Positions 15,468 through 63,470 of a DNA stretch of 64,000 nt are shown here, in pieces; position 1 is the first letter of the stretch, and each line of letters begins with the position of its first letter. The notes beneath the pieces were generated by a model. It had not been told where the DNA came from and made no database searches. It saw only the letters and a list, made by a program, of their open reading frames with translations. The translations under genes and the position numbers were made by a program. Location: contig JAJYNN010000002.1 of the NCBI GenBank assembly GCA_021786315.1, forward strand, positions 334,997 to 398,996, written 5' to 3'. The stretch comes from a bacterium (GTDB lineage: Bacteria; Patescibacteriota; Microgenomatia; Daviesbacterales; UBA10151).

Positions 15468-15588
15468 AAGAGTATATTACTTAATTAGCACATCCTTTTT
15501 CTAAGATCAAGATGTTGAAATAATTTCAGGCCCAAATAACGGATTGATTTAAGAAATTTTCCACACTATATTATAGGGTACCTTAGAT

Positions 15589-16299: not shown

Positions 16300-16363
16300 A
16301 CCTTGCCTCTACTATTGAATTTCCCGGCCTTACCTAGTACAATTCTTAAGTTCTTAGGTACAA

Positions 16364-16633: not shown

Positions 16634-16705
16634 GTCTAAATTTTAAAGCTCAAATTTTTAAATAAGTTTTAAAATTTAAAATTAAAAATTTAAAATTGTT
16701 GATAT

Positions 16706-24504: not shown

Positions 24505-25443
24505 TTAGTGTCTGTGCGCCTTATGGTATTTATGGGACTCTTTGGCCAGGGTGGTCCAGTAGGACCCCAGGCCGACAAGGATCGCCCCAATAATGAAGGT
24601 AAACCGCATCTGTTCACCCAGGATTGCCACCCCAAGAGTAATGGCTACCAGGGGCTCCAGATATTGGAACAGGTCGGCCTTAACTATTCCCAACTTCGAG
24701 AGTCCCCACTCAAAAAGGAAGTAAGCCGAGACGGAGGAGGCGATAGCGCTAAACAGCAGGCCGAAAAGCCCGATATACGTGACCTGGTGCACCCAGCCGG
24801 GATTTTTCAGGTATTCCGTTAAGGCGGGTACGGCAAAGGATAAAATTCCCACCAAAAAGATCATGGATGTCACGGTCAAAGTGGAATATTTTTGCAGCAG
24901 GCCTTTGGAAAGGCCGGCACCCGCTACCCAGGCGGCGGAGGCCAGGATAATTAAAATATTACCGATTAAGGCATTGGAGATGGGCTGTAAACCCAGGGCA
25001 AAATAGGGCACCCCAATGACTAATATTGCCCCAATTAACCCTAAAACGATCCCGATTAAGTTCACGGTATAGATCTTTTCCCTTAAAAACCACCAGCCGG
25101 CCAAAACCGAGAGCATCGGGATAACCATGGTTAGAACTGAGGCGGAGGTGACAGTGGTCCTTTGCATCCCGGTGTAAAAGAGGCCAATGTTCAGGGTAAC
25201 CATGAAAATGCCGACGGCAAAAAGTTTGGGCAGGTCTTCCCGGGCAAGCTTTGACTTTTTCTTCTCGGTTAAGATAAAAGGAAGAAGGAAGAGGATAGCC
25301 AGGATAAAACGCAGGAAAGCCAAAGACATCGGCGGAAATTCCTGCAGGGCCAGCTTGGCTACGACAAAGTTAATCCCCCAAATGGTGTGGGCCAGGACAA
25401 TGGCAAAATACGGCCAACTCTTTTTGAAGACATCGGATGCCAT
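24505..25443 (-). CDS. EamA/DMT-superfamily transporter
   Basis: 10 TM helices, duplicated EamA-like halves. Confidence 0.7.
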   Translation of the reverse strand: MASDVFKKSWPYFAIVLAHTIWGINFVVAKLALQEFPPMSLAFLRFILAILFLLPFILTEKKKSKLAREDLPKLFAVGIFMVTLNIGLFYTGMQRTTVTSASVLTMVIPMLSVLAGWWFLREKIYTVNLIGIVLGLIGAILVIGVPYFALGLQPISNALIGNILIILASAAWVAGAGLSKGLLQKYSTLTVTSMIFLVGILSFAVPALTEYLKNPGWVHQVTYIGLFGLLFSAIASSVSAYFLFEWGLSKLGIVKADLFQYLEPLVAITLGVAILGEQMRFTFIIGAILVGLGSYWTTLAKESHKYHKAHRH

Positions 25444-25472
25444 AATGTGAATTAAGAGTTATGAATTCAGAA

Positions 25473-25838
25473 TTAAGAATTATTCTTAGATTTTCTGATA
25501 ATCGTAACCAGTATTCTTATTATTTCATCATTCTCTTTGAGAAGTAAACCGAGCTCTTTTGAGTTAGTCAGTTTTGCCCTGGAAATTAAAGTTAACCAAT
25601 AATAAGTTTCCCTTGCCTCTTTTAATGCAACATTTAAAGAGTGGGTGAAGTCTTTTTTAGAGTGGGCACTTTGAGCTTCTTGAACATTAGCTCCGATTGA
25701 TGTTCCAGATCTGACAATTTGGGAAGCAATTGCATAACCAGCAGGTGTTTTAGGAAGGCTATTGACTAAGACGATAACTTCAATTGCAAACTCGATTGTT
25801 CTATCTGTGATATCAATTCTTAATTCATTATTCTGCAT
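25473..25838 (-). CDS. four-helix-bundle protein (23S rRNA IVS protein family, TIGR02436-like), free-standing
   Basis: 'IVRSGTSIGANVQEAQSAHSKKDFTHSLNVALKEARETYYWL'; 5' end overlaps hisS stop by 11 nt; AAGAATT repeats at both ends. Confidence 0.8.
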   Translation of the reverse strand: MQNNELRIDITDRTIEFAIEVIVLVNSLPKTPAGYAIASQIVRSGTSIGANVQEAQSAHSKKDFTHSLNVALKEARETYYWLTLISRAKLTNSKELGLLLKENDEIIRILVTIIRKSKNNS

Positions 25839-27030
25839 TCTGAATTCGATTTATCGCTTCATCAAGGGTGGCAGTTTGCTGGGTTTTGTTACTGAGGTCT
25901 TTTAAGGTAGCGGCGCCGTTTTCGGCTTCCTCCGGACCGATAATCACTACATAAGGTATCCCTTTTTGGTCGGCATACTTTAATTGTTTTTCCAGCCTGG
26001 TTTCAGGATCAAGCCAGATTTCCGAGTTTATCTTTTTTGAGCGAAGGGCTTCTAATACCTCAAGAGAATTATTGGCGAGCGCTGGGGAAAAGACGGTCAC
26101 TAAAACCTTGGCGGAAGATTTGAGGTTGGGAAGCAGTCCTTGGGATTCCAAAACTTCAACTGTCCGGTCAAACCCTAAGCCAAAACCTACGGCGGGGTAA
26201 TCAGTACCTGAGAAACTGCCGATCATCTTATCCCACCGACCGCCGCTGCAGATTGAGCCGGTGCTTCCCTCGGCAACAGTCTCAAAGATCATCCCTGTGT
26301 AATAATCCAAACCCCGGGCGAGGGTCGGCTCGTATTTCACTTTATTGGTATCTGCTCCCAGCTTTTCTAAAAGTTCAACAATTTGTTTGAGATTTTCGCT
26401 CATGGGGGTTTCCTGAAGTTTCTTTAAAGCTACTTTGGCATCCTCTTCGGCCATGCCTTTTTGGACCATCTCCGCCAAAACTTCGCTTTCACCGATCTTT
26501 TCCAGCTTATCAATGGCAGAAACGTATTTTTTGTCTAAACCCTCAAAATTTGCCCGGTCATTAACTTTAATGGTGACATTTAGTCCTAAGTTTTGGTAGA
26601 TGCCGAGAACCAAATTGAGAATTTCCGCATCAGCCAGGGGGGAGGAGGAACCGACAATATCGGCATCGCATTGCAAAAATTCCCTGTATCGGCCCCTTTG
26701 GGTATTTTCACCGCGGAAAACCGATTGGATTTGGTACCTTTTGAATGGTTTGGGAAGTTCGGGGTATTGAGCAATGACTCGGGCTAAAGGGACAGTTTGG
26801 TCATACCTTAAAGCTACCTCATCACCGCCTTTGGTTTGAAACTCATAAATCAGCTTTTCCTCCTCGCCGTATTTACCCTTTAAGACTTCGGCAAATTCCA
26901 AAGACGGGGTTTCCAGAGGCTCAAAGCCTAAAAGGCGGAAAGACTCCTTAATTTTGCCCAGCACATACTCCCGGGCGTTAGCCTGGTCTGGTAAGAGATC
27001 CCGGAAACCTTTTGGTGTAGCTGTTTTCAT
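25828..27030 (-). CDS. hisS: histidine--tRNA ligase
   Basis: class II aaRS HisRS pattern 'KGFRDLLP', 'RYDQTVPLAR', 'FRGENTQRGRYREFLQCD', C-terminal anticodon-binding domain. Confidence 0.9.
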   Translation of the reverse strand: MKTATPKGFRDLLPDQANAREYVLGKIKESFRLLGFEPLETPSLEFAEVLKGKYGEEEKLIYEFQTKGGDEVALRYDQTVPLARVIAQYPELPKPFKRYQIQSVFRGENTQRGRYREFLQCDADIVGSSSPLADAEILNLVLGIYQNLGLNVTIKVNDRANFEGLDKKYVSAIDKLEKIGESEVLAEMVQKGMAEEDAKVALKKLQETPMSENLKQIVELLEKLGADTNKVKYEPTLARGLDYYTGMIFETVAEGSTGSICSGGRWDKMIGSFSGTDYPAVGFGLGFDRTVEVLESQGLLPNLKSSAKVLVTVFSPALANNSLEVLEALRSKKINSEIWLDPETRLEKQLKYADQKGIPYVVIIGPEEAENGAATLKDLSNKTQQTATLDEAINRIQNAE

Positions 27031-29812: not shown

Positions 29813-29863
29813 TGCAGTTTTATATATTAAAGTTATATTGTTAGGCGGTCAAGTTTTATGTTA

Positions 29864-29945
29864 GTATCGGATAGTCGGAATATCGGCGTATCAGCATGTC
29901 GGAATATCTGACACACTGAAACTCTGATATACTGACACTCTGAAC
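29864..29945. repeat. degenerate period-8 tandem array (about 10 octamers; first half ..TCGGA, second half ..CTGA: imperfect palindrome)
   Basis: GTATCGGA TAGTCGGA ATATCGGC GTATCAGC ATGTCGGA ATATCTGA CACACTGA AACTCTGA TATACTGA CACTCTGA directly upstream of the MBL-fold gene. Confidence 0.55.
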
Positions 29946-49743: not shown

Positions 49744-50499
49744 ATGTCAGGGCACAGTAAGTGGTCGCAAATTAAAAGACAAAAAGGTATGGCTGACGTT
49801 AAGCGTGGGGCAACTTTTACTAAATTGGCCAATGCCATTACTATTGCTGCCCGTTTAGGTGGTTCCGGTGATCCCAATTCCAGCCCCAGGCTTCGTATGG
49901 CTGTTGAGGCTGCCCGTCAGGTAAACATGCCCAAAGATAACGTTCAGCGGGCCATAGATCGTGGTTTAGGAAAGCTTCCCGGACAAGTCTTGGAAGAGGT
50001 GGCTTATGAGGGATTTGGCCCAGGTAAAGTGGCCTATCTTATTGAGGGTGTCACTGACAACCGTTTACGGACTAACCAGGAAGTAAAGAACCTTTTTGAC
50101 CGGGCCGGCGGGGCTTTGGGTGGACCGGGCAGTACCGCCTATATGTTTGACCGGAAAGGGGAGATCAAAGTAAAAACTAGGGGTGGCAATAAGGATGATG
50201 AATTACTGGAGCTCATTGATCTTGGGGCAGACGATGTGGAGGACTTTGAAGAGGATAATATACAAAAGTATTTAGTATATACAGAAGGCTCAGAATTAAA
50301 TACTATGGGTACAAAAATTACTCAGGCTGGGTTTGAAATAGAGGAGCAGGATTTAACCTATAAACCGAACATGGTGACAGAAGTAAAAGATGCCAATGTA
50401 GCGCAAAAGGTAATGGAGTTTACGGAAAAATTAGAAGATTTGGATGATGTCCAAAAGGTATATGCAAATTTTGATATACCTGATGAGATGGTGGAATAA
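49744..50499 (+). CDS. yebC: YebC/PmpR-family DNA-binding regulator
   Basis: 'MSGHSKWSQIKRQKG..D.KRG..F.KL...I..AAR.GG.DP..N..L'. Confidence 0.9.
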   Translation: MSGHSKWSQIKRQKGMADVKRGATFTKLANAITIAARLGGSGDPNSSPRLRMAVEAARQVNMPKDNVQRAIDRGLGKLPGQVLEEVAYEGFGPGKVAYLIEGVTDNRLRTNQEVKNLFDRAGGALGGPGSTAYMFDRKGEIKVKTRGGNKDDELLELIDLGADDVEDFEEDNIQKYLVYTEGSELNTMGTKITQAGFEIEEQDLTYKPNMVTEVKDANVAQKVMEFTEKLEDLDDVQKVYANFDIPDEMVE

Positions 50500-50596
50500 T
50501 TTTCAATTTTTAATTCTTAATTTTCAATAAATTTTTAATGTTTAAATTTTAAAAATTAGAAATTCACTGTAAATTGGAAATTTTAAATTAGAAATT
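50500..50596. repeat. AT-rich intergenic element (AATTTTCAATT ... CACTGTAAATTGGAAATT family)
   Basis: shares sub-motifs with 22928-23025, 24372-24470, 34233-34331, 47362-47437. Confidence 0.5.
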
Positions 50597-51148
50597 ATGA
50601 TTATATTAGGCATTGATCCAGGAACAGCCACAACCGGATATGGACTTATCAAAGTACCTGATGATTTGTTAGGAAGGAAGTTTGACTATGATTTGGAACT
50701 TGTAGACTATGGTTTTATCTCCACGCCCAAAGATACCTTAATGGAAAAAAGATTGGTGATGTTACACCACGATTTGGAAAAGCTCTTGGACCAATTTAAG
50801 CCTGATTTGATTGTCATTGAGATGTTATTTTTTGGTTCCAATACCCGGACAGCGATTGCTGTCGGGCAGGCGAGGGGAGTGATGATGCTTTCTGCCGGGA
50901 TGAGAAATATCCCGATCCATGAATATACCGGGCCACAGGTAAAGTTGATGATTGCCGGATCAGGCAGGGCAGACAAGAAACAGGTCCACGAAGGTGTCCG
51001 GAAATTTTTGGGTAAAAGCGGTAAAAAGACCCGGGAGCTGGTCCAGCCGATGGTGGGAGGCGCCAGAAGGAATAAGAAGTTTTCTGATGATGCCACCGAT
51101 GCCCTTGCCATTGCTATCACTCATGTCTTAAAGTTAGCAGCAGCATAA
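50597..51148 (+). CDS. ruvC: crossover junction endodeoxyribonuclease RuvC
   Basis: 'IILGIDPGTATTGYGLI', 'IVIEMLFF', 'DATDALAIAITH'. Confidence 0.9.
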   Translation: MIILGIDPGTATTGYGLIKVPDDLLGRKFDYDLELVDYGFISTPKDTLMEKRLVMLHHDLEKLLDQFKPDLIVIEMLFFGSNTRTAIAVGQARGVMMLSAGMRNIPIHEYTGPQVKLMIAGSGRADKKQVHEGVRKFLGKSGKKTRELVQPMVGGARRNKKFSDDATDALAIAITHVLKLAAA

Positions 51149-51152
51149 AAGA

Positions 51153-51968
51153 ATGAAGGCTTTATCAGTCAAATTAAAAGTTTTTGGGGTTTCGGCAGAA
51201 TTAACCAAACGCCAAAAGATTATTGTTGCCTCGGGTATCCTTTCTCTTGGGTTATTGTCCACTCAATTGGTGCCGTTTTATCTGGCTTACCGGTTTATTG
51301 CGGGCTTGACGGTTGCCGCTTATCTGCTTTCCCTTTGGGCTTTGTGGGAGGGAATGGACAGGAGAAAGGCGGTAATTTTGATGATCTTGCCGACTTTGTT
51401 TACCCTGGCCGTTGCCAGCTATTATTTTTTGTTGCCGGTCCGCTGGTTAACCAGAATTCCGGTGGCGACACTTTTCGGGCTGACTTTTTATACATTGCTT
51501 TTGTCCCAAAATGTCTTTAATGTGGCTTCCACCAGGACCATTCCTTTGTACAGGGTGGCCTCAACCACAGTTTTTATTTTAACTTTAATTACTTCATTTC
51601 TATTGTTTAATGTCATGTTTTCTTTGAACCTGTTTTTCCTCTGGAACGGGGTAGCGGTCTTTATCTTAACTTTTCCGCTGATTTTACAGGTTCTTTGGAC
51701 AATTGATATGGAAGCTGTTTCGAGCGTAATTTTAATGTATAGTTTGAGCCTATCTTTGGTAGTGGCGGAGATTGGGGTGGCCCTGTCTTTTTGGCCGCTT
51801 TCTAAGTCTATGGCTTCCTTAATGCTATCCACGGCCATTTATACAACCTTGGGAATTGGATCTGATGCCTTAAAGGAACGGCTGAGTAGAGGAGTGGTCT
51901 GGGAATATTTAGGCTGGGGAGCGGTGATCTTCCTTGTAGCTTTACTCGGCACTTCCTGGACGGGGTAG
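51153..51968 (+). CDS. hypothetical polytopic membrane protein
   Basis: 7-8 TM helices. Confidence 0.45.
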   Translation: MKALSVKLKVFGVSAELTKRQKIIVASGILSLGLLSTQLVPFYLAYRFIAGLTVAAYLLSLWALWEGMDRRKAVILMILPTLFTLAVASYYFLLPVRWLTRIPVATLFGLTFYTLLLSQNVFNVASTRTIPLYRVASTTVFILTLITSFLLFNVMFSLNLFFLWNGVAVFILTFPLILQVLWTIDMEAVSSVILMYSLSLSLVVAEIGVALSFWPLSKSMASLMLSTAIYTTLGIGSDALKERLSRGVVWEYLGWGAVIFLVALLGTSWTG

Positions 51969-51974
51969 ACCCGA

Positions 51975-53299
51975 GTATCGGAATATCGGAGTATCAGAAT
52001 GTCAAAAGATTCCGACACTCCGAAACGCAGATATTCTGACACGCTGAATAAAAAGGGGAGAATAGTGTGTTGGAAAGCCCCAAATGAAGATGCAAAAAGT
52101 TGTTTGCCTTTATAGCATCTTCTCGCAGTACGCTTCGCGTACAATTGGAAGTATTCACCATAAAAAAGTGAATACTTCATACGATAGAGGAGGTAGAGAG
52201 GCGAAAACTATGGGACATTGTTTGATATAGTTGATATAGTTTGATATAGTTGCTAGCCTCGAATGTGGATAACTATAAGACATATCAGAGTATCAGAATA
52301 TCGGAACATCAGTGTGTCGGGAGACCAGAACATCAGATGATCAGAGTGTAGAGAACGAGAGAATACACTACTCTGGGGAGGCTACGACAAGATATATTTT
52401 TACCATTCTTACAAGACGACTGCTAACTTCTGTTTACACGCGTGAAAAATTAGGGATCTCCTTTGAAAGAGAGGAGAGCTCCCGTTACTTTATAAAAATA
52501 CGCACAAATTAGAACACGAAGCTGTGAGTTTGCCTCTACTTCAAGATAGATCCAGCCTCACACCCCGCTAAACAGAAGCCCTACTCAATTACTATGTCGC
52601 ACAATGTATCTTATGCGACGTCATGGATGCCTGTAACCAGGGGGAGACCCACCGGTCGCCAAAGCGACCGAATTTATAATTTTCAATTAACAATTTTAAA
52701 TTCTTTATTTTGTACCTATTTTAAATACTTTCCTATCGAAAAATTTTTCTTAATTCTTAACTCTTAATTCATAATTCTCGTTTTTTAGGTTTAGGGCTTT
52801 GGGACAAGCTAATCTGGGATGATGAAGTGTACATCCTCCCCCCGTTTCGACCGTTTTAGGGGCCTTCTAGAGCCTCGTGCGTAAATAGCCAGAGTGCCAG
52901 AGTTTCGGCGTATCAGAGTGTCGGAAAAGACATTAATAAACCCAGGTCTTATGCAAAGCGTTTAATCTTTTGGATAAAATTCGATATTCTTCTAATAAAT
53001 TGTTGGCTTCTACAGAAAAATTTTCATCAATCATTGATAAGGCTCTTAGATGAGTAATTATTTCGTCACTGGAACCAATAGCTATCAATAGATATCTTCT
53101 AAATTCCTTTTGTGAATTACGCTTAGCGAAGCCTTCAGCCTGTGGTAGCTTATTAGCTAATTCGTATAACTCCTTTAGTAACCTTAGTGATTCTTGGTAA
53201 ACCACTAAGTCTGTTACATCCTTAATTTCCATCAATTTTATCTTATTCACGAGTCCTTTTCCGGTTAACCGACATTCCGATACTCCGATATTCTGATAC
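51975..53299. mobile_element. cassette bounded by inverted 29-bp octamer-array ends (27/29 identity), containing a repeat-rich non-coding kb and a four-helix-bundle gene
   Basis: left 51975-52003 GTATCGGAATATCGGAGTATCAGAATGTC; right 53271-53299 is its reverse complement with 2 mismatches. Confidence 0.35.
52933..53232 (-). CDS. four-helix-bundle protein (23S rRNA IVS protein family), free-standing
   Basis: 'MEIKDVTDLVVYQESLRLLKELYELANKLPQAEGFAKRNSQKEFRRYLLIAIGSSDEIITHL'; the ORF track's 5' extension to 53556 is considered spurious. Confidence 0.7.
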   Translation of the reverse strand: MEIKDVTDLVVYQESLRLLKELYELANKLPQAEGFAKRNSQKEFRRYLLIAIGSSDEIITHLRALSMIDENFSVEANNLLEEYRILSKRLNALHKTWVY

Positions 53300-53368
53300 G
53301 TCGCACAATATTTATCCTCTTTCGAGGCTATTCGACTACCTTTTAATCTATGATAGTATGAAATAGAG

Positions 53369-54844
53369 ATGGCTTTGTTTGGAAATAAATTTAAGGTAAA
53401 GGATCTAGTTTCCCTCACTCTCCTACTCTTGTTAATGGCTGCTATTCCTTTGGGGGTGAAATTAATTGAACAACAACAGATATTAAAAGGAAGGGCATCC
53501 TCGAATCTGGATAGTTGTGTCAATAAATTAATCTTTGGGTTTAATGGCCCGGTCAATAATAAAATTAGAGAGCTTTTTACCAGCCCTTCACTTAATTTTA
53601 TTCCAGTTGCTTGGAAGGATATCCAGCCAAATCAAAGTTCTGCTTACGATTTTTCCAAAGTTGATAAATTAATAAATGACACCATTGCCGAAGGCCGGAC
53701 TCCAACTATTAAGTTTTGTGATGGTGATTGTTTCCCTGATTGGGCCAGGCAAATGGACACCGCTCCCGAGAGAACTTATTGCTGTAGTACTGATTATGTG
53801 TGCCGAGTATTAAAGGAAGATACCGGTACTGCAAACGCCTTTTCCGATGTGGTTAAAGCGATGGTGAACCGCTATAAAGATAAGGTGCATTATTGGGATT
53901 ATGGTATTGAGCCAAATTGCCGGGGTTACAACCCACAAAAATATACCGGTTTGCTGAAAAACTTTGCCAACTCTGTTAGGTCACAGGATTCAGGAGCTGT
54001 TATTGTCGGAGGACATTTGGCGGGAGCCAACATCGACTATCTGCGGGCGATGTATGCCGCCGGGGCTAAACCGTATTTTGACCGGCTCTCCGTTGACCCT
54101 TATGGTGAGCCGTTGGACTTTAATGCCTTGGAAGTTGCCCATAATTATATGGTTAGTCAAGGAGATGGCAATAAAAAGATCTGGTTGGGTGAATGGGGTT
54201 TGGCGACTAACAATGATGAGACAAAACAAGCAGATCAAGTCCAGATAGGCCTAAATTATTTGGCAAATCAATCTTGGATTGAAGCTGCTTTTTATCACAA
54301 TTTTGAATGTGAGCTTTGGACTAGCACTTGTTCCCCCGGAACTCCCGGTTACTTAGGCTTTGGTTTAACTAAAAGTGATGGCAGCGTGAAGCTTGCCTAC
54401 AATACCTTTAAGCATGCGGTGAGTGCTTGTATGGCTGCAACCCCTACGGCTCAGCCTTCCCCTATTGCCAGCCCGACAACTTCCGCTTCTCCGACCGGAA
54501 CCATATCCCCTGTGCCGACGGTTTCCTGGGCTCAAAGTACCCCAACCCCAATTTCTTCATCCCAGGGTAATAATTCCGGTAGAGCTACCTCCACCTCTAC
54601 TCCATCTTATAAGAGGAACTTGTCCAAAGCCTTCCCTACCCCGACTCCCCTGCCTACCTTGTCTCAGGAAACCCTCAAGTTTGACTATAACGGTGATAAT
54701 AAAGTTAATAGTTTTGATGTTGGTTTGTTTATCCAAGGATGGCTGAAGAATGATGCTTCCGGAATTGTTAAATTTGACGCCAACGGCGATGGCATTATTA
54801 ACTCACTGGATTATTCCCTTTTGGTCAAGAGTGTTAATCCTTAA
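53369..54844 (+). CDS. N-terminally anchored GH5-like (clan GH-A TIM-barrel) glycoside hydrolase with Pro/Thr linker and C-terminal dockerin module
   Basis: 'WDYGIEPN' (NEP-like acid/base), 'IWLGEWGLA' (nucleophile context); dockerin Ca-loops 'DYNGDNKVNSFD' and 'DANGDGIINSLD'. Confidence 0.6.
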   Translation: MALFGNKFKVKDLVSLTLLLLLMAAIPLGVKLIEQQQILKGRASSNLDSCVNKLIFGFNGPVNNKIRELFTSPSLNFIPVAWKDIQPNQSSAYDFSKVDKLINDTIAEGRTPTIKFCDGDCFPDWARQMDTAPERTYCCSTDYVCRVLKEDTGTANAFSDVVKAMVNRYKDKVHYWDYGIEPNCRGYNPQKYTGLLKNFANSVRSQDSGAVIVGGHLAGANIDYLRAMYAAGAKPYFDRLSVDPYGEPLDFNALEVAHNYMVSQGDGNKKIWLGEWGLATNNDETKQADQVQIGLNYLANQSWIEAAFYHNFECELWTSTCSPGTPGYLGFGLTKSDGSVKLAYNTFKHAVSACMAATPTAQPSPIASPTTSASPTGTISPVPTVSWAQSTPTPISSSQGNNSGRATSTSTPSYKRNLSKAFPTPTPLPTLSQETLKFDYNGDNKVNSFDVGLFIQGWLKNDASGIVKFDANGDGIINSLDYSLLVKSVNP

Positions 54845-54889
54845 GGTTTCACTTGACAACCTTTATATATATGGTCTACGCTAAATTCA

Positions 54890-55177
54890 GTGGATCCTGA
54901 CATGAACCAATTTGATTCGATTAAAGAGCAAACCAGTAAAAGGAAAAATGTTTTAACTGCCTTAATGGTTGTAGCGGCAATTCTAATAATTCCCTTCGGA
55001 GTAAAGCTTATCCAGCAACAACAGGAATTAAAGTCAAAAGCGGCTAATGATTCCATTCAGTTTGCCGGTGATAGTGTCAAGTGTGATACGGCCGGTAAAT
55101 GTACCACCACTTCCAAGACAGTCCAGGTCCAGTTGCGTTCGCCGCTTGGACCGCCGGCCAAACTACCGCAGCATTAA
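54890..55177 (+). CDS. small N-terminally anchored protein sharing the 'P[LF]GVKLI[EQ]QQQ' motif with the preceding gene
   Basis: TM 'LTALMVVAAILIIPFGVKLIQQQQELKSK'; same frame as the next gene, separated by a single TAA. Confidence 0.4.
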   Translation: MDPDMNQFDSIKEQTSKRKNVLTALMVVAAILIIPFGVKLIQQQQELKSKAANDSIQFAGDSVKCDTAGKCTTTSKTVQVQLRSPLGPPAKLPQH

Positions 55178-55180
55178 AAT

Positions 55181-57148
55181 ATGGAATATCTTAAAAAAGC
55201 CTACATTTTAATAATTCCACTTTCCCTCTCCTTATTTTTATTTGTAGCCTTTTTCGTTAGCCCGGTAAAAAGTTATGCTTGTACTCCTGGTGAAAGTGAG
55301 GTTTGTCCTAGCATAAAGCAATGTACTAGTGGCCCTCATCAGGGAGAAGCTTGTGCATCCGGGCACAAATATTGTACAAATTTAAACCCTGCAACTGGTG
55401 AATATGATAACGATGTAACACCTTATTGGACCGATTGTGTGCAGGAGGTAGATAATTGTGGTACACAGTGTACTTCGGCTACAGTTTCTCCGACAGGTTC
55501 GACTGGTAATTGTAGCGGTAATGCCAATACTAAATGTGGATCAATCCCTTGGAGCACTGTAAGCTCAGAGCTGAAAAGTGCTGGTTATGGCGGGCCGTTT
55601 GATTGTAGTCAAACAGAGCTGGATAGTTACAATGGGGTTAAGGTTTGTGAAGGAACAAGTCCTACTGGAAGCCAAAATGGTTCGTGCCCTTTGAGCGGAT
55701 ATAGTGTTGATAACGCTTTGGCTACCTGTATTGCGAGTAAGGACAGCAGCCTGCCGGGAAGTATTAAGAAGTTAGGTAGTGACAACGGTCAGGATTGGAG
55801 TGGCTGCTCAAACCAGCAATTAATTGCCAAGTGGTGTACGGATATTAATTCCAGCGGTTGTAACGATTACAAAAACGGTGCTTGCGCTTCCGGGCCGACT
55901 GCCACACCCACTGTGGCGGTTGCAACTACTGAGTACAGAATTTCTGAAACCCGGTTTGGCCGAAGCGACAGTGGAACCGGTTCCCCTCAATGGGTTGCCT
56001 ATAATAGTGATGACGGTTCTGAACCGATAACCGTTCCTTATACTTTTACCAATGGTAATCCCGGTGATACTTTAACCCTTTGGGTGCAATTTAAGGACAA
56101 TAAGGGCGATGTAACTGAGCCTAAACCTTACTCTATTAAATATATCGGCCCTGACCCAAAGATTACCAGCGCTAGTTGTACCTTTGACCCATCCGGCCAG
56201 GGAACCTTGGTAACTTTGACCGGATCTAATTTCAATACCCACGACGAACAAGGCACGGGCGGTGTTAAGATTAACGGCCAGCAGGCGGATATTATCTCTT
56301 GGGGCGAGGATACTCCGGGTATTACTCCTACAGGTGCTGTTTCTCCCACTATGTCGGTTACACCTACAACTTCCGTATCCCCAACTGCCAGGCCGGGTGG
56401 GACTGTCTGTGCCCAGGTTATAACTTCGGCAAAAAATGCTACCGGGACTGAGTGTAAAGATTTTCCAACCCCTTGTGATGTTCCGGCGGGATGGGTGGTT
56501 GTCAACAGCTGTTCGGGCGGCTCAACTGTTTTGGGTGAAAGCGTTACCAGATCAAAGGTTGTGGCTAAAATCAAAGACCAGCTTCCCGGAAATGCCAGGG
56601 TTCCGCTTTTGCTGACCATGGATGACGGCCGGGCTGTCACGGCTACCTGTAGCATAAACACCACCACTGTCTCATTCCAGGCAAAAATTGGCTGCCGCAC
56701 CTCCGGTGACTATGCCGAAAACGGTGTCAACATTAATATCATGGAGGACATCCGTGGCGCTAAACCTTTGGTCAGGCAAAAGGTCAATATTGACGCTGCA
56801 GGAAATCTTCCCTCTGATTTTGCTCCGGTGCTGGAAGTTGGTAAGAAATACAAAATGTTAATTAAAGCCCCCAATACTCCAACCCGCAGAATTGAGTTTA
56901 CCCCCTCACTAGGATCGAATATTTTGTCTGACGTCAGTATGGATGTTGGTGATATTGCCCCGGCTGGACATGCTGACGGTAAGATCAACGCTTTGGATAA
57001 GTCTGAGCTTGCCAGAGAGTTTTCCGCAGGCTGTAGCACCACAACTGCCAAAGCGGGAGACTTTAACCAGGATGGTTGTGTCAATGCCTTGGACTGGTCT
57101 TGTATGAGGGAAAATATTAATAAGGAGGACGAGGACACAATCCAGTAA
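55181..57148 (+). CDS. secreted Cys-rich protein with Pro/Thr linkers and C-terminal dockerin-like module
   Basis: signal peptide; >30 Cys in N-terminal 230 aa; 'GHADGKINALD' and 'DFNQDGCVNALD' Ca-binding loops. Confidence 0.55.
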   Translation: MEYLKKAYILIIPLSLSLFLFVAFFVSPVKSYACTPGESEVCPSIKQCTSGPHQGEACASGHKYCTNLNPATGEYDNDVTPYWTDCVQEVDNCGTQCTSATVSPTGSTGNCSGNANTKCGSIPWSTVSSELKSAGYGGPFDCSQTELDSYNGVKVCEGTSPTGSQNGSCPLSGYSVDNALATCIASKDSSLPGSIKKLGSDNGQDWSGCSNQQLIAKWCTDINSSGCNDYKNGACASGPTATPTVAVATTEYRISETRFGRSDSGTGSPQWVAYNSDDGSEPITVPYTFTNGNPGDTLTLWVQFKDNKGDVTEPKPYSIKYIGPDPKITSASCTFDPSGQGTLVTLTGSNFNTHDEQGTGGVKINGQQADIISWGEDTPGITPTGAVSPTMSVTPTTSVSPTARPGGTVCAQVITSAKNATGTECKDFPTPCDVPAGWVVVNSCSGGSTVLGESVTRSKVVAKIKDQLPGNARVPLLLTMDDGRAVTATCSINTTTVSFQAKIGCRTSGDYAENGVNINIMEDIRGAKPLVRQKVNIDAAGNLPSDFAPVLEVGKKYKMLIKAPNTPTRRIEFTPSLGSNILSDVSMDVGDIAPAGHADGKINALDKSELAREFSAGCSTTTAKAGDFNQDGCVNALDWSCMRENINKEDEDTIQ

Positions 57149-57194
57149 ACCGGGAGTTGTAGACAAGCAATCTTGGTTATGTTTAGATAAATAT

Positions 57195-57803
57195 ATGGAG
57201 CAAACACAGGGAATAATCAGTAAACTAGCTACCAGAAGAAACATTGTTACCGTGATTGTGGTTATTTTGGTGGCTGAGATAGCTTGGGGCGTTTGGACTT
57301 TAACCAAACCCACCAAACAAGGGTCCACCGAGCGGGGTTTGGTGTCTGAAGCCAAAGCCTCTTCTGCCTCCGTCTTTTTACAGACCCCTAAGTCCAGCTA
57401 CACTATTGGGGAAAAAGTGGTTGTAACCATCAGCATCTCCTCTACCCGCCACACCGATGGAACGGATTTAATCATTAAATATGATCCGAAGGTATTGGCG
57501 ATGGATCCTGCTGTAACTAAAGCCCCGGTGGCTGTCGGCAAGATTTATACTGAGTACCCAATAAATACCGTGGATGAAAAAGCCGGGAAAATTACTGTTT
57601 CCGGAATTACTTCTGCTCCGTCCGGAGTAGTCCCGCAAGGGGTTTTTGGAACTGTCACATTCGTGGCTAAAGCTTCCGGAAAAACAAAAATCGCTTTGGA
57701 CTTTACTCCCGGAAGCACCTCAGATTCCAATGTTGTGGAATCAAAAACAGCCCTGGATGTCCTTGATGGGGTGAAAGACGTCGACCTGACAATCGTGCCA
57801 TGA
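57195..57803 (+). CDS. N-terminally membrane-anchored single-cohesin protein
   Basis: TM 'IVTVIVVILVAEIAWGVWTL'; cohesin-like 'GEKVVVTISISS...DLIIKYDPKVL', 'GKITVSGITSAPSGVVPQGVFGTVTFVAKASGKTKIALDF'. Confidence 0.55.
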   Translation: MEQTQGIISKLATRRNIVTVIVVILVAEIAWGVWTLTKPTKQGSTERGLVSEAKASSASVFLQTPKSSYTIGEKVVVTISISSTRHTDGTDLIIKYDPKVLAMDPAVTKAPVAVGKIYTEYPINTVDEKAGKITVSGITSAPSGVVPQGVFGTVTFVAKASGKTKIALDFTPGSTSDSNVVESKTALDVLDGVKDVDLTIVP

Positions 57804-58540
57804 AAAGATTATTGACCCGCTGCCTTTTGTCTGTAGCCGCTTTGGCGACCATATCCTTTTCTGCCGCTCCTGCATTTGCTACCGGAGCGACACTTTCGTT
57901 GTCCCCCAGTACCGGAACCTTTAATAAAGGCTGCGGCTTTACACTTTCAATTAATTTAGACACCGGTGGCGCCCAAACAGACGGCACCGACGCTATTTTA
58001 TTCTATGACCCTACCCGTTTTACCGCTAATGCCATTCACAGCGGAACAATTTATGCAGATTACCCGGGCAATAATATCGATGCCACAAATGGAAAGATTA
58101 CTGTTTCCGGATTGTCTTCTGTAAGCAGCGCTTTTTCAGGGGCAGGGACGTTGGCGACAATAGACTTTGCGGTAGCAGATGATGCTCCGGCCGGCACCAG
58201 CCAGATTAAGTTTGATTTTGACCCCGCTGATAAAACCAAAACTACCGATTCCAATGTTGTGGAAAGAGGGACGGTTACAGATATCTTAAACCAAGTGGTA
58301 GACGGTAACTACACTATTGGTACCGGGGCCTGCGGCACCACCAATTCAGGGACAACAACGACAACTACGAATAATACAGCCACCGGTTCCGGTGTTTGGA
58401 CTAAGACACCTGTTGGCGGGCCTCTCCCGACCAAAACTCCGGTTCTTCCCCAATCCGGGAACATTTCTCCGACGGTTTTAGTGGCCGTCGTTGGCAGCGC
58501 TTTGACTATTTTAGGCATCTTAGGTCTCGCGATACTTTAA
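57800..58540 (+). CDS. secreted single-cohesin protein with Thr-rich stalk and C-terminal LPQSG plus hydrophobic anchor
   Basis: signal peptide; cohesin-like 'GCGFTLSINLD...DAILFYDPTRF', 'GKITVSGLSSVSSAFSGAGTLATIDFAV'; 'LPQSGN' then TM, no basic tail. Confidence 0.55.
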   Translation: MKRLLTRCLLSVAALATISFSAAPAFATGATLSLSPSTGTFNKGCGFTLSINLDTGGAQTDGTDAILFYDPTRFTANAIHSGTIYADYPGNNIDATNGKITVSGLSSVSSAFSGAGTLATIDFAVADDAPAGTSQIKFDFDPADKTKTTDSNVVERGTVTDILNQVVDGNYTIGTGACGTTNSGTTTTTTNNTATGSGVWTKTPVGGPLPTKTPVLPQSGNISPTVLVAVVGSALTILGILGLAIL

Positions 58541-58541
58541 T

Positions 58542-59459
58542 ATGGCTCTCTCTGCTCTTGTCACCGATTTCCTGGAATACCTGGAGGTAGAACGTCATGC
58601 CTCCCAAAAAACGATCGAAAATTACGACCACTACCTTAAAAGGTTTGTCGAGTTTGCCGGGGATATTGATCCGAGGGCAATCAATTTGGCCTTGATCCGT
58701 AAGTTTAGGCTGCACTTAAACCGCTGGATTGATCCTAAAACCAAGAAGCCCTTAAAAAGGGTGACCCAAAATTATTTCATGATTGCTCTCCGGGCATTCT
58801 TAAAATATCTCGCCCGCCAGGACGTAGATACTTTATCTCCGGAAAAGGTGGAGCTGGGAGAAACCGATGCCGCTCCGATCAAAGTTTTGGATGAGGAAGC
58901 CTTAAAGAGACTATTAGAGGCGCCGGATGTTTTGGACAAGTCCGGGCTTCGGGATAAAGCCCTTTTGGAAACGCTGTTTTCTACCGGCCTGCGGGTTTCC
59001 GAGTTGGCTTCTTTAAATAAGGACACTGTAAACCTCGACAGAAAAGAATTTTCAGTGGTCGGGAAAGGTTCCAAGGAACGGATTGTCTTTTTGTCTGACG
59101 ATGCAGCCAAATGGCTTGACCAGTACCTTAAAAGCCGCAAGGACCCCTATAAACCGCTGTTTATCCGCTATCAGGGAGCAGATGACCCGGCGGATAATGG
59201 GGAAAATATGCGGCTTACTTCCCGCTCGATCCAAAGGATTGTGGAAAAATATGTTAAAGGTGTGGGACTTCCGGTAAAAGCCACTCCCCATACTTTGCGC
59301 CATAGCTTTGCTACGGATTTGTTAATCAATGGAGCCGATATCCGTTCGGTGCAGGAAATGCTGGGCCACTCCAACATAGCCACCACCCAAATTTATACCC
59401 ATATCACGAATAAGCACCTCAAGGATGTCCACAAAAGTTTTCATTCTGGAAATAAATAA
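58542..59459 (+). CDS. tyrosine recombinase, XerC/XerD family
   Basis: 'HTLRHSFATDLLINGADIRSVQEMLGHSNIATTQIYTH' (R..HxxR...Y catalytic residues). Confidence 0.85.
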   Translation: MALSALVTDFLEYLEVERHASQKTIENYDHYLKRFVEFAGDIDPRAINLALIRKFRLHLNRWIDPKTKKPLKRVTQNYFMIALRAFLKYLARQDVDTLSPEKVELGETDAAPIKVLDEEALKRLLEAPDVLDKSGLRDKALLETLFSTGLRVSELASLNKDTVNLDRKEFSVVGKGSKERIVFLSDDAAKWLDQYLKSRKDPYKPLFIRYQGADDPADNGENMRLTSRSIQRIVEKYVKGVGLPVKATPHTLRHSFATDLLINGADIRSVQEMLGHSNIATTQIYTHITNKHLKDVHKSFHSGNK

Positions 59460-59489
59460 GGGATATGGTGTATGTAGTAAGGGGTATGG

Positions 59490-59864
59490 ATGGAAAATCA
59501 GAAAATAAAGTCTTTTACTGAGCTTAACGCCTGGCAAGAGGGCCATCAATTAGTTTTAGCAATATATCGTTTAAGTAAATCATTTCCTCAAGAAGAGAAA
59601 TTTGGATTAACAGATCAAATAAGGAGGGCATCTGTTTCTATAACTTCTAACTTAGCCGAGGGTTTTTCGAGATTAGGCAGAAAAGAGAAGTTACAGTTTT
59701 ATCGCATGTCTTTGGGTTCCTTAACTGAATTACAAAATCAACTGATTATTGCAAGGGACTTAGAATACGTGACTTTTGAAGAATTCAGGAAAATAGAAGA
59801 CTTATCTGTGGTAGTTAGTAAATTATTAAATGGTTTACTTAAATCTCTTTCCCGTAATACATAA
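59490..59864 (+). CDS. four-helix-bundle protein (23S rRNA IVS protein family), free-standing
   Basis: 'LNAWQEGHQLVLAIYRLSKSFPQEEKFGLTDQIRRASVSITSNLAEGFSR'. Confidence 0.8.
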   Translation: MENQKIKSFTELNAWQEGHQLVLAIYRLSKSFPQEEKFGLTDQIRRASVSITSNLAEGFSRLGRKEKLQFYRMSLGSLTELQNQLIIARDLEYVTFEEFRKIEDLSVVVSKLLNGLLKSLSRNT

Positions 59865-59867
59865 TAC

Positions 59868-60713
59868 TTACCCCTTACCCCATAAACTTTTCAGTAATTC
59901 CACATTATTCTTATCCGGTCCTTGTCCTGCCTCCCCTGGGATTTCCAGGATAAAGGGTACATTTTGTAGTTTGGGATGGTTTATTAAAGCCCGGAAACCT
60001 TCCAGTCCGATATAACCTTGGCCGATATTCTCGTGCCTGTCTTTTTTGCTTCCCAGCTCTGTTTTGGAATCATTGGCATGGATGGCCACCAATTTTTCTA
60101 CCCCAATTTCCCGGTTTATCACCTCTACCCACTCCTCTACTTTCTCTTTTGTTCTTAAATCATATCCTGAGGCAAAAGCATGCTGGGTATCCAAACAAAC
60201 CTTTAGCCTGGGATTGTTGACTGCCTTGATAATTTGCCCAAGTTCCTCAAGGGTATCCCCTATTAAATTCCCTGCTCCGGCCGAATTTTCCAGGATCAAA
60301 TTAGCCTCACCGGTTTGGCTCAAAATAGCTTTGATGGCTTGGACAACCTGGCCTATTGCCTGCTCCTGGGTAGTGCCTTTATATGACCCAATATGGAAAA
60401 TAGTTCCCCCTATTCCCAACTTTTCCGCCGTCTTTTGGGAATAAATGAGCCAATTGACGGATTTTTGTAGGTGCTCCTGGTTAGGTGTAGCCAAGCTGAC
60501 AAGGTAAACTGCGTGGATAAAGTTAGGGCCGATCCCTGATTCTTGGGCTTTAGCCCGGTATTTTTGAATTTCCTCTTCCGGATGGCTTATTTGAACCCAT
60601 TGCTGAGGCGGGGTGATAAATATTTGGGTGCATTCTGCTCCCAGCTCTTCTGCCCGGTTAAAACTTAGATCCAGTGATCCGGCAGCTGAAACATGAGCAC
60701 CCACCTTTGGCAT
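59868..60713 (-). CDS. nfo: endonuclease IV (AP endonuclease family 2)
   Basis: 'GAHVSAAGSLDLSFNRAEELG', His/Glu metal-site pattern; 281 aa. Confidence 0.9.
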   Translation of the reverse strand: MPKVGAHVSAAGSLDLSFNRAEELGAECTQIFITPPQQWVQISHPEEEIQKYRAKAQESGIGPNFIHAVYLVSLATPNQEHLQKSVNWLIYSQKTAEKLGIGGTIFHIGSYKGTTQEQAIGQVVQAIKAILSQTGEANLILENSAGAGNLIGDTLEELGQIIKAVNNPRLKVCLDTQHAFASGYDLRTKEKVEEWVEVINREIGVEKLVAIHANDSKTELGSKKDRHENIGQGYIGLEGFRALINHPKLQNVPFILEIPGEAGQGPDKNNVELLKSLWGKG

Positions 60714-60920: not shown

Positions 60921-63470
60921 TTAATTACTGTCCTCTTTTTCCTTCTCAACCACGGAGGCGGCGACAACCCTTTCGCCATCCCTCACTCTCATCAAGATAA
61001 CACCTTGGGTTTGCCGTTGTAAAGTCGGAACATCTTTGACCATTATCTTAATAAGCTGGCCTTTGTTAGAGGTCATTACCAGTGTACTTCCGTCGGAGCC
61101 GACTATTTGGGCGGTAACGATTGACCCGGTTTTAGAAGTGACTTGGGCAGCTTTGACTCCCATGCCGCCTCTTCCCTGCCTGCTCCAATTGGAGACTAAT
61201 GTCCTTTTGCCTAAGCCGTTGGCCATCACCGCTAAAAGTTGGTCAGATTTGGGGTCGCCGATCTTATTTAAGGAAACTACCTCATCCCCCTTGGAAAGTT
61301 TAATGCCTCTTACCCCCGAAGTATCTCGGTGGGTTGGTCGGACATCTTTTTCGGTGAACCTGATTGATTGTCCTTGCTCTGAAACGATGATTAAATCATC
61401 ATCACCGCTTGTGGGGCAGACCCAGCACAAAGTATCCCCTTTATCCAGGTTGATTGAGATCAGGCCGTTTTTGCGGATCGAAGCATACTCTTCGATGGCG
61501 GTTTTCTTGACGTTGCCTTCCTTGGTGCACATAAAGAGGTATTTGGCGGTTTCCTTTTTCTGCCTGGTGGTCAAAACTGCGGTAATCTTTTCGCCTTGAT
61601 CGATATTAATCAGGTTGACGATGGCTTGGCCTTTGGCAATCCGGGAGGCTTCGGGGATTTCCCAAACTTTGAGCTGGAAAACCCGGCCCCGGTCGGTGAA
61701 AAAGAGGATATTGTCTAAAGTCATGGTGTAAAAGATATGGCTGACTGCATCTTCTTCCTTGGTGGTAATGCCGGAAACACCCTTGCCCCCGCGGTTTTGG
61801 ACCCTAAAGGTTGAAGGAGCTTGTCTTTTGATATAGCCCCCCTCAGTAATGGTGACAATGGTATTCTCATCAGCAATTAAGTCCTCTTCGTTAAACTCCC
61901 CTACTTTCTGCTTGTAGACCCGGGTTTTTCTTTCGTCCCCGTATCTTTCTTTAATTTTTACCAGCTCATCCTTGATAACTTTCAGTATCTTTTCCGGATG
62001 GGCCAATAAGTCCTCAAGGTAAGCAATAGTTTCCCGGACCATCTTTAACTCATCCTCAATTTTTTGCCTTTCCAGGGCAGCCAGACGTCTAAGTTGCATA
62101 TCCAAGATAGCCAGGGATTGAATCTCGCTTAACTTGAATTTAGCCATCAGGTTAGTTTTCGCCTCATCAGCATCCTTACTCTTTTTAATGGTTTCGATCA
62201 CCGCATCGATATTGTCAACGGCGATTTTTAAGCCTTCCAAAATATGTTCCCGGGCCCGGGCTTCTTTAAGCTCAAATTCGGAGCGTCTTCGAATAACGAC
62301 CTGACGGTGGGAGATAAATTCCTCCAGGATGTGCTTTAAGGTGAGAAGTTTTGGTACCCCGTCCACCAAAGCGACCATATTAACATTAAAGACCGATTGC
62401 ATGGCGGTATGCTTATACAAATTATTAAGCAGGGATTGGGGTTTGGCGTCGCGCTTGAGCTCAATGACGATCCGCATTCCCCGTCTGTCGGATTCATCGC
62501 GTAAATCGGCAATTCCTTCTATCTTTTTCTCCTTGTGCAGCTCGGCAATCCGGGTAATTAAGTTAGCTTTATTAACTTGATACGGAATTTCAGTGACGAT
62601 GATATCGAACCGCCCGCTTTTGGTTTCCTCGATCTCGGCCTTGGCCCGCATGACGATTCTCCCCTTGCCGGTAGCGTAAGCGTTCATGATTTCTGATTGG
62701 TCGTAAATAGAACCACCGGTTGGGAAATCCGGGCCTTTGACGAATTGGACAAGTTCTTCGACGGTAGCATCAGAGCTAAATTTTTCAGAGGAATCAGTTT
62801 TTTCTGATTCACTGGTTAACAGATTTTCTGATAGATCCGATTTTCTGGTCTTCTGGTTTTCTGATTTGCTGGGGTGGTCAATCATGTAAATCAACGCACT
62901 GGTTAATTCCCCCAGGTTGTGGGTCGGGATTTGGGTGGCCATGCCGACGGCAATACCGGCGGCGCCGTTAAGAAGCAGGTTAGGGATGACTGAAGGTAAA
63001 AGTGTTGGTTCCTGGGTTGTTCCGGAATAATTATCGATGAAATCAACAGTATCCTTGTGGATATCCCGCAGGAGTTCATCAGCGATGGCGGAAAGCCTGG
63101 CTTCGGTATAACGCATAGCAGCCGGCGGATCGCCGTCTACTGAACCGAAGTTTCCCTGGCCGTCGATTAACATGTAACGCATGGAAAAGTCCTGGGCCAT
63201 CCGGACCATGGCTTCATAAACCGGAACATCGCCGTGGGGGTGGAAATTTTTTAAAACCTCTCCCACAACTGCGGCTGATTTTTGGTAGCGGGCGGTATGG
63301 TGCAGGCCGGATTGCTGCATGGCGTAGATGATTCTCCGCTGCACCGGTTTTAAGCCGTCGCGGACATCAGGAAGGGCCCGGGAAACAATAACCGACATGG
63401 CGTAGTCCAAATAGGACTTCTTCATTTCTTCTACAATTGGGGCTGGTTCTATCTTACCTATATTACTCAT
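60921..63470 (-). CDS. gyrA: DNA gyrase subunit A, with ~40-aa Ser/Glu/Lys-rich insertion
   Basis: '[25 protein letters not shown]', active-site Tyr region, C-terminal beta-pinwheel repeats. Confidence 0.95.

Follow-up and report, generated by a model that had tools for sequence, protein, structure and literature searches.

The DNA analyzed here, a window of 64,000 nt from contig JAJYNN010000002.1, carries a gene for an Xer-type tyrosine recombinase (xer; 58542-59459, plus strand) and, upstream of it, a 28-bp imperfect palindrome (52594-52621, plus strand) that resembles the dif sites on which such enzymes act. Our reading, which we hold to be probable, is that this is the chromosome dimer resolution locus of a Daviesbacteria-like genome of the candidate phyla radiation (CPR, or Patescibacteria), placed at or near the replication terminus, to which a clade-specific cohesin-dockerin operon and independent inserts encoding four-helix-bundle (4HB) proteins have been added. 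Homologs of the window's DUF5656 protein and of one of its 4HB proteins bear the names Candidatus Daviesbacteria or Microgenomates. Gene identities, synteny, conservation of the site, the shift in GC skew around it, and the anatomy of the 4HB inserts were observed directly. The locus provides the first candidate dif site with a linked single Xer for this CPR lineage and is no departure from known kinds of system.

Genes of the window were identified by Pfam and NCBIfam domain searches, and its proteins were mapped onto loci of relatives for a comparison of gene order. These loci, coded L001 to L093, include one found by exact look-up (L001), one from an nfo-based scan of reference genomes (L002), L003 to L082 from a metagenome scan with Xer as the query, and four from genomes fetched through DUF5656 homologs after the dif hypothesis had been formed, which served as a test set (L090 to L093). 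Alignment of the 1.4-kb stretch between the DUF5656 gene and the first dockerin gene with its counterparts in L003, L008, and L013 revealed strongly conserved non-coding blocks, of which the palindrome is the sharpest. The palindrome reads ATGTCGCACAA-TGTATC-TTATGCGACGT, with 11-bp imperfect inverted arms, complementary at 9 of 11 positions, around a 6-bp center. It lies in non-coding DNA between the DUF5656 gene and a 4HB insert, and the full 28-bp site has one copy in the window.

The core of this sequence (positions 7 to 22, CACAATGTATCTTATG) matches the corresponding part of E. coli dif (CATAATGTATATTATG; sequence from PMC3025954) at 14 of 16 positions. We also scanned both strands of the window, 128,000 positions in all, with a matrix derived from published dif predictions for Acidobacteria, Actinobacteria, Bacteroidetes, Chlamydiae, and Chlorobi (PMC3025954 supplement) together with E. 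coli dif. The palindrome was the top match on both strands, with 18.2 and 17.6 bits, and the next unrelated site reached 10.3 bits; among shuffled windows, used as a control, 2.5% reached 18.2 bits. It is the top match in L003, L008, L013, L016, and L076 as well. All four genomes of the test set carry the predicted site, 400 to 550 nt downstream of DUF5656, and in each of these 20.8-kb loci it is the best match to the matrix. Wherever a locus carries both, the palindrome lies 400 to 650 nt downstream of the DUF5656 gene.

Ten lineages have the site in the same place. In their alignment, 19 columns of a 24-bp core are invariant, and the flanks show essentially no conservation. At the symmetric positions 7 and 22, each of the four possible pairs is found (C..G, T..G, C..A, and T..A), and this independent variation points to two arms contacted by protein rather than to an RNA stem. 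Taken together, these features make the palindrome the probable dif of this chromosome, and the Xer encoded downstream is the likely enzyme to cut it. An intrinsic terminator was considered for the same sequence and set aside, as no T-run follows the palindrome and the single terminator-like hairpin in its vicinity (52653-52670) is not conserved.

The recombinase has the N-terminal SAM-like domain (PF02899) and the catalytic domain (PF00589) of the Xer family, and full-length alignments were obtained with its best solved relatives, E. coli XerD (1a0p; 139 bits) and archaeal XerA (4a8e and 5hxy). In the alignment to 1a0p, each of the catalytic motifs (R, K, HxxR, H, and Y) is present (TGLRVSEL, GKGSKER, HTLRHSFAT, and LGHS...QIYTH). 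On the NCBIfam XerC and XerD models the protein scores 247 bits, where about 330 would be required, whereas its score of 221 on the model for archaeal XerA just exceeds the cut-off of 220. We found no second Xer within the window, and xer is convergent with gyrA in all relatives compared. As part of the reading given above, and with the same likelihood, we take the protein to be a single housekeeping recombinase acting on the 28-bp site. Xer-catalyzed recombination at dif is normally controlled by FtsK.

The surroundings of xer are conserved as well. The order YebC, RuvC, DUF5656, about 1 to 1.4 kb of non-coding DNA, dockerin proteins, cohesin proteins 1 and 2 (coh1 and coh2), Xer, zero to four variable genes, and gyrA is shared by L003, L006 to L008, L010, L013, and L090 to L093, and L002 has the Xer-proximal part of it; the succession from DUF5656 to gyrA holds in L009 as well. 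Identity of Xer or DUF5656 in the relatives sharing this order is 59 to 83%. More distant relatives (L012, L014, L016, and L076) have neither cohesin nor dockerin genes. Two of these, L016 and L076, show DUF5656, the palindrome, a separate copy of one of its arms (the half-site, described below), Xer, and gyrA in succession, with 0.9 to 1.4 kb between DUF5656 and Xer, and the other two retain Xer through to gyrA. Because these distant, cohesin-less relatives keep the backbone together with Xer, we regard xer as a vertically inherited core gene.

This bears directly on the initial annotation, which had suggested an integrated genomic island that the recombinase had carried in and that had 4HB genes at its ends, and had offered a housekeeping dimer-resolution Xer as the fallback. 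An island of this kind, lying between ruvC and nfo-gyrA with its own Xer-like integrase and with the 4HB genes marking its ends, would explain why the cohesin-dockerin genes are missing from the more distant relatives, why the dockerin cargo varies between lineages, and why a recombinase stands at one end of the cluster. The description of the cluster as accessory does hold, in that its cohesin-dockerin genes are clade-specific with variable cargo and were therefore acquired at some point, long ago, but we see no signature of integration. The gene order is identical in ten lineages, a conservation across the supposed island that the annotation itself had named as incompatible with one, and Xer remains beside gyrA where the cluster is absent. 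Composition is ordinary: GC content at third codon positions (GC3) and codon usage of the cluster genes have z-scores of -1.4 to +0.7 relative to the window, in place of the atypical values that an island might show, and the GC profile over the cluster is unremarkable. Nor are there attachment-site-like direct repeats flanking 53.3 and 59.9 kb, where we found short chance-level matches only, or dif-like arms within the cluster or at its right end. No tRNA or tmRNA that might have served as an integration target lies near either cluster edge, the single tRNA of the window being at 33.5 kb. The two 4HB genes are indeed present at the edges of the cluster, but they are not mutual repeats (about 33% identical), most relatives lack one of them, and there is a third copy at 25473-25838, at a distance of 27 kb. 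The locus is not an island moved by the recombinase, and we consider the island explanation highly improbable. The fallback fares well, since Xer stands beside gyrA even in the four loci without cohesin genes and a dif-like site is linked to it. The case also carries a caution for island calling, as a recombinase beside accessory surface genes is insufficient.

To place the site relative to replication, we compared the plus-strand GC3 skew of genes on its two sides. To the left of the site almost every gene has a positive skew, minus-strand genes included, and to the right the values are lower. The drop is seen in 8 lineages and is significant in 7 of them, with means going from +0.14 to -0.03 in the window (p 0.005), from +0.35 to +0.02 in L003 (p 0.002), from -0.11 to -0.35 in L013 (p 0.001), and from between +0.17 and +0.25 to between -0.06 and +0.07 in L090 to L093 (p 0.036 to 9e-5). 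For L008, in which two genes alone lie to the left, p is 0.077. In the window, the plus strand carries most genes to the left of the site, and the minus strand those beyond 59.8 kb. A drop in skew combined with converging genes is what a terminus should show; an origin would show the reverse. We take this as support, short of proof, for a position of the site at or close to the replication terminus.

Several observations weigh against the dif/Xer reading. The skew shifts without a clean inversion, being about zero to the right of the site in most lineages; the skew of gyrA in the window (+0.21) has the wrong direction; the maximum of the bulk cumulative skew falls at 59.8 kb, about 7 kb from the site; and the sequence to the right of the site spans 10 to 12 kb only. 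The site also has a perfect DnaA box and an AT-rich stretch as neighbors, features that one would not look for at a terminus. A dif-matrix match of 18.6 bits occurs inside a coding region of L002, and such a score alone is no proof. Uniqueness of the site and of Xer is established for 64 kb of a contig of 942,606 bp, and co-transcription of the operon and surface display by the cohesins are predictions from gene spacing and domain content. Finally, a regulator of the xer operon could use the palindrome as its operator.

The DnaA box (TTATCCACA, 52264-52272), the sole perfect one in the window, comes after three tandem TGATATAGT boxes, which are extended -10-like and conserved in L003, L008, L013, L016, and L076; the three boxes and the DnaA box together occupy 52222-52272 on the plus strand (52208-52272 in a wider delimitation). 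A promoter scan of these boxes gave TTGATA-17-TATAGT with a preceding TG. DnaA-box-like 9-mers with one mismatch number 34 in the window against 14.8 expected, and the ten that lie beyond 52 kb are without exception minus-strand. A replication origin, suggested by the DnaA box, the AT-rich stretch, and the nearby gyrA, was rejected on three counts: the box is single and without a cluster, the skew shift is downward, and the genes converge.

A second, partial copy of the site marks the start of the operon. The half-site ACGTCGCACAA (53298-53308, plus strand) is a copy of the left dif arm, and lies 60 nt before the first dockerin gene; apart from the palindrome itself, the window has no other good match to a dif arm. 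Its motif, GTCG[CT]ACAATAT, precedes the operon in L003, L008, L013, and L090 to L093 and stands directly before xer itself in at least 14 distant loci, giving more than 20 loci in which it is found in front of xer or its operon. In the distant loci it typically takes the form GTCGCACAA, fused to an extended -10 (TGTTACAAT or TGTTATAAT) 7 nt before the ATG, and because the extended -10 sits so close to the start codon, the xer transcript there may well be leaderless. Both the full site and a promoter-linked half-site are present in L016 and L076. These positions suggest that the half-site is a promoter or operator element of the xer operon, and Xer may bind it and thereby regulate its own expression. 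Since the motif stands directly before xer in distant relatives, the cohesin-dockerin genes lie between the putative xer promoter and xer.

In the operator explanation, palindrome and half-site are bound by an ordinary transcription factor that controls the xer/cohesin operon, or they belong to its promoters, and the real dif lies elsewhere on the chromosome. The left arm holds a -10-like TACAAT or CACAAT, the distant relatives fuse the arm to the extended -10 just described, palindromes of such size are common in the window, and comparable matrix scores arise by chance, as the match in L002 illustrates. However, of all 128,000 positions it is the palindrome that best fits the dif sites of other phyla, and the same is true in nine other loci. 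Its coincidence with the skew shift in 8 lineages, its 11-6-11 geometry, and a linkage to xer that is kept through gene gain and loss also argue against an ordinary operator, which we consider unlikely.

Between the dif candidate and the half-site lies a slot whose contents differ among lineages. It holds a 4HB gene in the window, L003, L008, and L091, a GIY-YIG gene in L090 (11684-11959), a HAD/NT5C-like gene in L076 (909-1691), and no passenger in L013, L016, L092, and L093. Also within the slot is a non-coding element of about 110 nt (GGGCTTTGGGACA...CCGTTTTAGGGGCCTTCTAGAGCCTCGTG; 52779-52891, plus strand) that is conserved in 8 lineages, including L003, L008, L013, and L090 to L093. RNAalifold predicts a weak long-range helix with 4 covarying pairs for this element, which has no match in Rfam and could be an accessory recombination sequence or a small RNA. 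A search of the whole window against Rfam at the gathering threshold returned nothing but one distant tRNA, and at permissive E-values there was no relevant match in the region from 51.9 to 53.4 kb.

A full site and a degenerate copy enclosing variable DNA bring to mind integrative mobile elements exploiting Xer (IMEX), and the host Xer might have captured DNA at dif, either the cohesin-dockerin cluster or the 0.7-kb slot itself (52621-53298). The full site and the half-site are directly oriented, like dif and the degenerate difGGI of the gonococcal island (PMC5357621); the passengers of the slot vary; and a look-alike site occurs in the non-coding DNA of a phage contig. Yet the two sites do not enclose the cohesin cluster, at whose right end no further site is found, and in many distant loci the half-site accompanies the xer promoter where no full site is seen nearby. 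The conserved 110-nt element, found in 8 lineages, means that the slot is more than foreign DNA, and the 4HB passenger has inverted-array ends of its own and inserts at many places other than dif. The phage match, moreover, has a chance expectation of about 0.1. We think capture at dif quite unlikely; in form the slot has the flanks of an IMEX, and the cohesin cluster does not fit one.

The phage contig in question (L089; IMGVR_UViG_3300035698_008332) encodes a large terminase and a portal protein and carries GCGTCGTACAA-TGTATC-TTATACGAAGC in non-coding DNA at 6104-6131. Its left arm and center are identical to those of the dif candidate and its right arm is degenerate, as in IMEX attachment sites. 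It was the single match in a viral search for the site, and with the chance expectation just given, which is our own estimate, it is only suggestive.

The genes between the half-site and xer, all on the plus strand, encode a cohesin-dockerin module. The first (53369-54844) specifies a secreted dockerin protein of 491 aa (Dockerin_1, E 8e-10) with a weak region resembling glycoside hydrolase family 5 (GH5; Cellulase, E 0.004, sub-threshold) and one weak match in the PDB; no ortholog was found in the related loci, and this cargo is specific to the window. It is followed by a 95-aa signal-anchor protein (54890-55177), which belongs to no family in Pfam or NCBIfam and has homologs at the same position in L003 and L008, and by a large dockerin protein of 655 aa with a weak TIG domain (55181-57148; Dockerin_1, E 3.6e-6), whose orthologs in relatives have 742 to 997 aa. 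Cohesin protein 1 (57195-57803; Cohesin, E 1.5e-6) has an N-terminal membrane anchor and is conserved in 10 lineages. Cohesin protein 2 (57800-58540; Cohesin, E 4.8e-9) has a C-terminal hydrophobic anchor, the helix of which (...ILGILGLxLL) is conserved in its orthologs. We considered a sortase signal for this protein and dropped it, as LPQSG is not conserved in the orthologs and the hydrophobic tail alone is. Both the cohesin and the dockerin modules score above the Pfam gathering thresholds.

The coh1 and coh2 genes overlap by 4 nt, and xer, the last gene, starts 1 nt after the end of coh2. By this spacing the three genes look translationally coupled, and the dockerin, cohesin, and xer genes are predicted to be co-transcribed as one operon. 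The segment coh1-coh2-Xer is the constant part, while the dockerin cargo changes between lineages: 491 (GH-like), 95, and 655 aa in the window, a single 906-aa protein in L003, proteins of 488, 335, and 888 aa in L008, and none in L093. That a housekeeping recombinase should be drawn into an operon with a cohesin-dockerin surface module is a lead worth following. The secreted proteins of the cluster also share a conserved N-terminal signal-anchor followed by a Q-rich motif (e.g., IPLGVKLIEQQQILKGRA and IPFGVKLIQQQQELKSKA), which is found at 53369-53500 and 54890-55040 in the window and at 14648-16876 and 16986-18821 in L002 and may be a lineage-specific export or anchoring signal.

On the left, the backbone flanking this module consists of YebC, ruvC (50597-51148, plus strand; Pfam RuvC), which is syntenic in L003, L008, L013, and L090 to L093, and the gene for the DUF5656 membrane protein (51153-51968, plus strand; PF18900, E 2.7e-10), the last backbone gene before the non-coding stretch. 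The genes named in the initial annotation were all recovered with Pfam and NCBIfam; the DUF5656 gene was absent from its description of the left flank. On the right, nfo (endonuclease IV; 59868-60713, minus strand; TIGR00587, 262 bits) is a variable occupant of the gap between Xer and gyrA, present in L002, L008, L013, and L093 and missing in L003, L010, L090, and L091. The backbone resumes with gyrA (60921-63470, minus strand; Pfam), which is convergent with xer and has 51 to 86% identity in relatives. In L004 to L008, the gyrA open reading frame (ORF) encodes 1280 aa (e.g., L008 14113-17955), compared with 849 aa in the window, and the window match spans just 85% of it, which suggests a large insertion, possibly an intein.

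The 4HB genes (PF05635/TIGR02436) lie in compact cassettes bounded by inverted arrays of 8-nt-period repeats. These cassettes are independent small selfish inserts with an anatomy like that of the intervening sequences (IVS) of rRNA genes. The left cassette (52892-53300, minus strand) holds a decayed gene (52933-53250), of which the C-terminal half of the model alone matches (E 1.6e-9), between inverted octamer arrays at 52892-52930 and 53269-53300. The right cassette (59457-59887, plus strand) holds an intact gene (59490-59864) for a full-length 4HB protein (Pfam, E 8.5e-37), again between inverted 8-nt-period arrays. In the third cassette (25436-25860, minus strand), the gene already mentioned, detected by jackhmmer (E 1e-26), sits between two minus-strand genes and within 46-nt inverted arrays of the GAATTAAG type; the presence of this third copy indicates that 4HB genes are frequent in the genome. 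Inverted arrays flank all nine copies examined, namely, the three in the window and those in L003, L008, L091, L083, L085, and L087, and the repeat sequence differs by cassette (GTATCRGA, GGTAAGGG/GTATGG, GAATTAAG, and GTATTTAG).

The left and right cassettes have separate histories. Their genes give no cross-match at E<1 in tblastn, and the right protein is 33% identical to the intact L003 ortholog of the left one. The left gene occurs at the same position in L003, L008, and L091; compared with the L003 copy it has lost 60 nt in frame, and the copy in L008 has lost 43 nt in a different deletion. This gene is decaying. The right gene is found at its position in this genome only, where relatives have a holin-like gene or nothing. 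Its closest homologs, 65 to 71% identical, come from Levy-, Davies-, and Andersenbacteria and from Saccharimonadales, and close homologs sit in very tight gaps between co-directional genes of other CPR phyla (L085/L086 2001-2375, L083 2001-2375, and L087 2001-2372). In Saccharimonadales the neighbors are thyA and folA; in Daviesbacteria they encode two giant DUF2341/Laminin_G proteins; a further copy follows a TraC-like gene. The termini of the left cassette pair in both the minimum free energy and the centroid folds (z = -2.7), enclosing the ORF, and a terminal stem of the right cassette likewise appears in both folds. By analogy with IVS, the cassettes may be processed at the RNA level. A repeat-bounded cassette had earlier been delimited at 51975-53299; the inverted repeat is real (51975-52003 with 53271-53299, 29 nt, 93% complementary) and is the outermost pairing among the octamer arrays.

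Other observations concern the same repeats. A solo hairpin of 8-nt-period repeats of the GTATCRGA type, a forward array followed by an inverted one, occupies 51973-52047 (repeat families D1, I2, and I4). It is one of the arrays without an ORF, of the GTATCRGA or TTCTTAAT type, the others being at 29860-29945, 22536-22570, 50496-50560, and 52671-52790; several are intergenic forward-plus-inverted hairpins, and they may be derivatives of 4HB cassettes. The right array of the right cassette (59864-59890) overlaps the last codons of nfo, where GGGGTAAGGGGTAA repeats encode the C-terminal ...WGKG*; the ends of nfo orthologs differ, which is consistent with the cassette having landed on the nfo stop codon. 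The 4HB genes were also considered as components of a diversity-generating retroelement and rejected as such: the right protein scores 29.5 bits on bAvd (threshold 40), and there is no reverse transcriptase among the genes called at the locus or in its relatives.

These findings can be assembled into a tentative history of the locus. The ancestral layout would have been DUF5656, dif, slot, half-site and promoter, xer, and gyrA, with dif 0.5 to 1 kb upstream of xer and with a copy of the left dif arm in the xer promoter, an arrangement that distant relatives still show. In one clade, the cohesin pair and variable dockerin proteins would have been inserted between promoter and xer, so that the inserted genes and xer now form a single putative operon, and the two membrane-anchored cohesins may hold the dockerin proteins on the cell surface. 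The left 4HB cassette, in the slot between dif and promoter, is old and decaying; the intact right cassette, between xer and nfo, is an unrelated event.

Two linked and more far-reaching readings can be proposed, although we think it rather doubtful that they hold. One is that the 4HB genes of CPR bacteria represent a widespread, undescribed class of IVS-like mobile cassettes beyond rRNA, with ends of 8-nt-period arrays, placed in operon gaps such as xer|nfo in the window and thyA|folA in Saccharimonadales, and probably removed at the RNA level. The other is that dif and the half-site delimit a slot at the terminus that is serviced by Xer and repeatedly captures selfish passengers, with Xer regulating its own operon through the half-site. 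On the more practical side, the locus yields a candidate for dif, defined to its 28 bp and paired with a single Xer, and a probable terminus marker for Daviesbacteria-type genomes, useful for genome curation and for estimates of replication rate from metagenomes. The family of four-helix-bundle "IVS proteins" is very large and, to our knowledge, uncharacterized, and their occurrence in hairpin-bounded cassettes outside rRNA may give a handle on their function.

How do these components compare with known systems? The 4HB cassettes most resemble the ORF-bearing IVS of 23S rRNA in Leptospira and Coxiella (PMC4990558). The Coxiella IVS has 428 nt, a 28-bp terminal stem with an S23p ORF in the loop, and is excised by RNase III (PMC4990558); the cassettes are likewise about 430 nt long, with a PF05635 ORF in the loop of a terminal-inverted-repeat hairpin, and have a sporadic distribution that suggests horizontal transfer. 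Unlike the rRNA elements, all three in the window lie between protein-coding genes and none in rRNA, of which Rfam finds no copy in the window. Their ends are 8-nt-period arrays of cassette-specific sequence, and they are accompanied by solo hairpins without an ORF.

As in cellulosome-type systems, the cohesin and type I dockerin modules belong to different proteins, secreted or anchored, whose genes are neighbors. In contrast to a cellulosome, there is one cohesin per anchor protein and no multi-cohesin scaffoldin, the sole enzyme-like cargo is the sub-threshold GH5-like region, and the genes are in a predicted operon with xer. Pairing of the cohesins with the dockerins is predicted from their domains. 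The likeness to IMEX elements such as CTX phage, the gonococcal genetic island, and LME-1 (PMC5357621, PMC9765430) lies in the full dif and degenerate copy, in direct orientation, enclosing variable DNA. The DNA enclosed here differs in being about 0.5 to 1 kb and in including a conserved element, and the large accessory cluster is outside the pair of sites.

With the classical XerCD/dif systems of E. coli and B. subtilis, the locus has in common the 28-bp palindrome, the core match of 14 of 16 positions, the GC-skew shift, and XerD as the best solved relative of the recombinase. It differs in having one Xer gene in the 64 kb searched, with scores below the XerC and XerD equivalog cut-offs, and in the near symmetry of the two arms, as expected for a site of the homodimer type. 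The closest parallels are the single-recombinase systems, namely, XerS/difSL of streptococci and lactococci, XerH/difH, archaeal XerA/dif, and Legionella XerL. These, too, have a lone Xer genetically linked to an imperfectly palindromic site, which lies in non-coding DNA and near the terminus, as the site here probably does. XerS makes up a single module with difSL (PMC5357621, PMC2731167). The system described here, known from its sequence, departs from XerS/difSL in an extra half-site at the xer promoter and in spacing: difSL is adjacent to its gene, whereas the site is 0.5 to 1 kb from xer in the ancestral layout and 5.9 kb from it in the window. The site also has the 28-bp, 11-6-11 form with a dif-like core, in contrast to the 31 bp and 11-bp center of difSL, and the recombinase is closer in sequence to XerD and XerA than to XerS or XerH.

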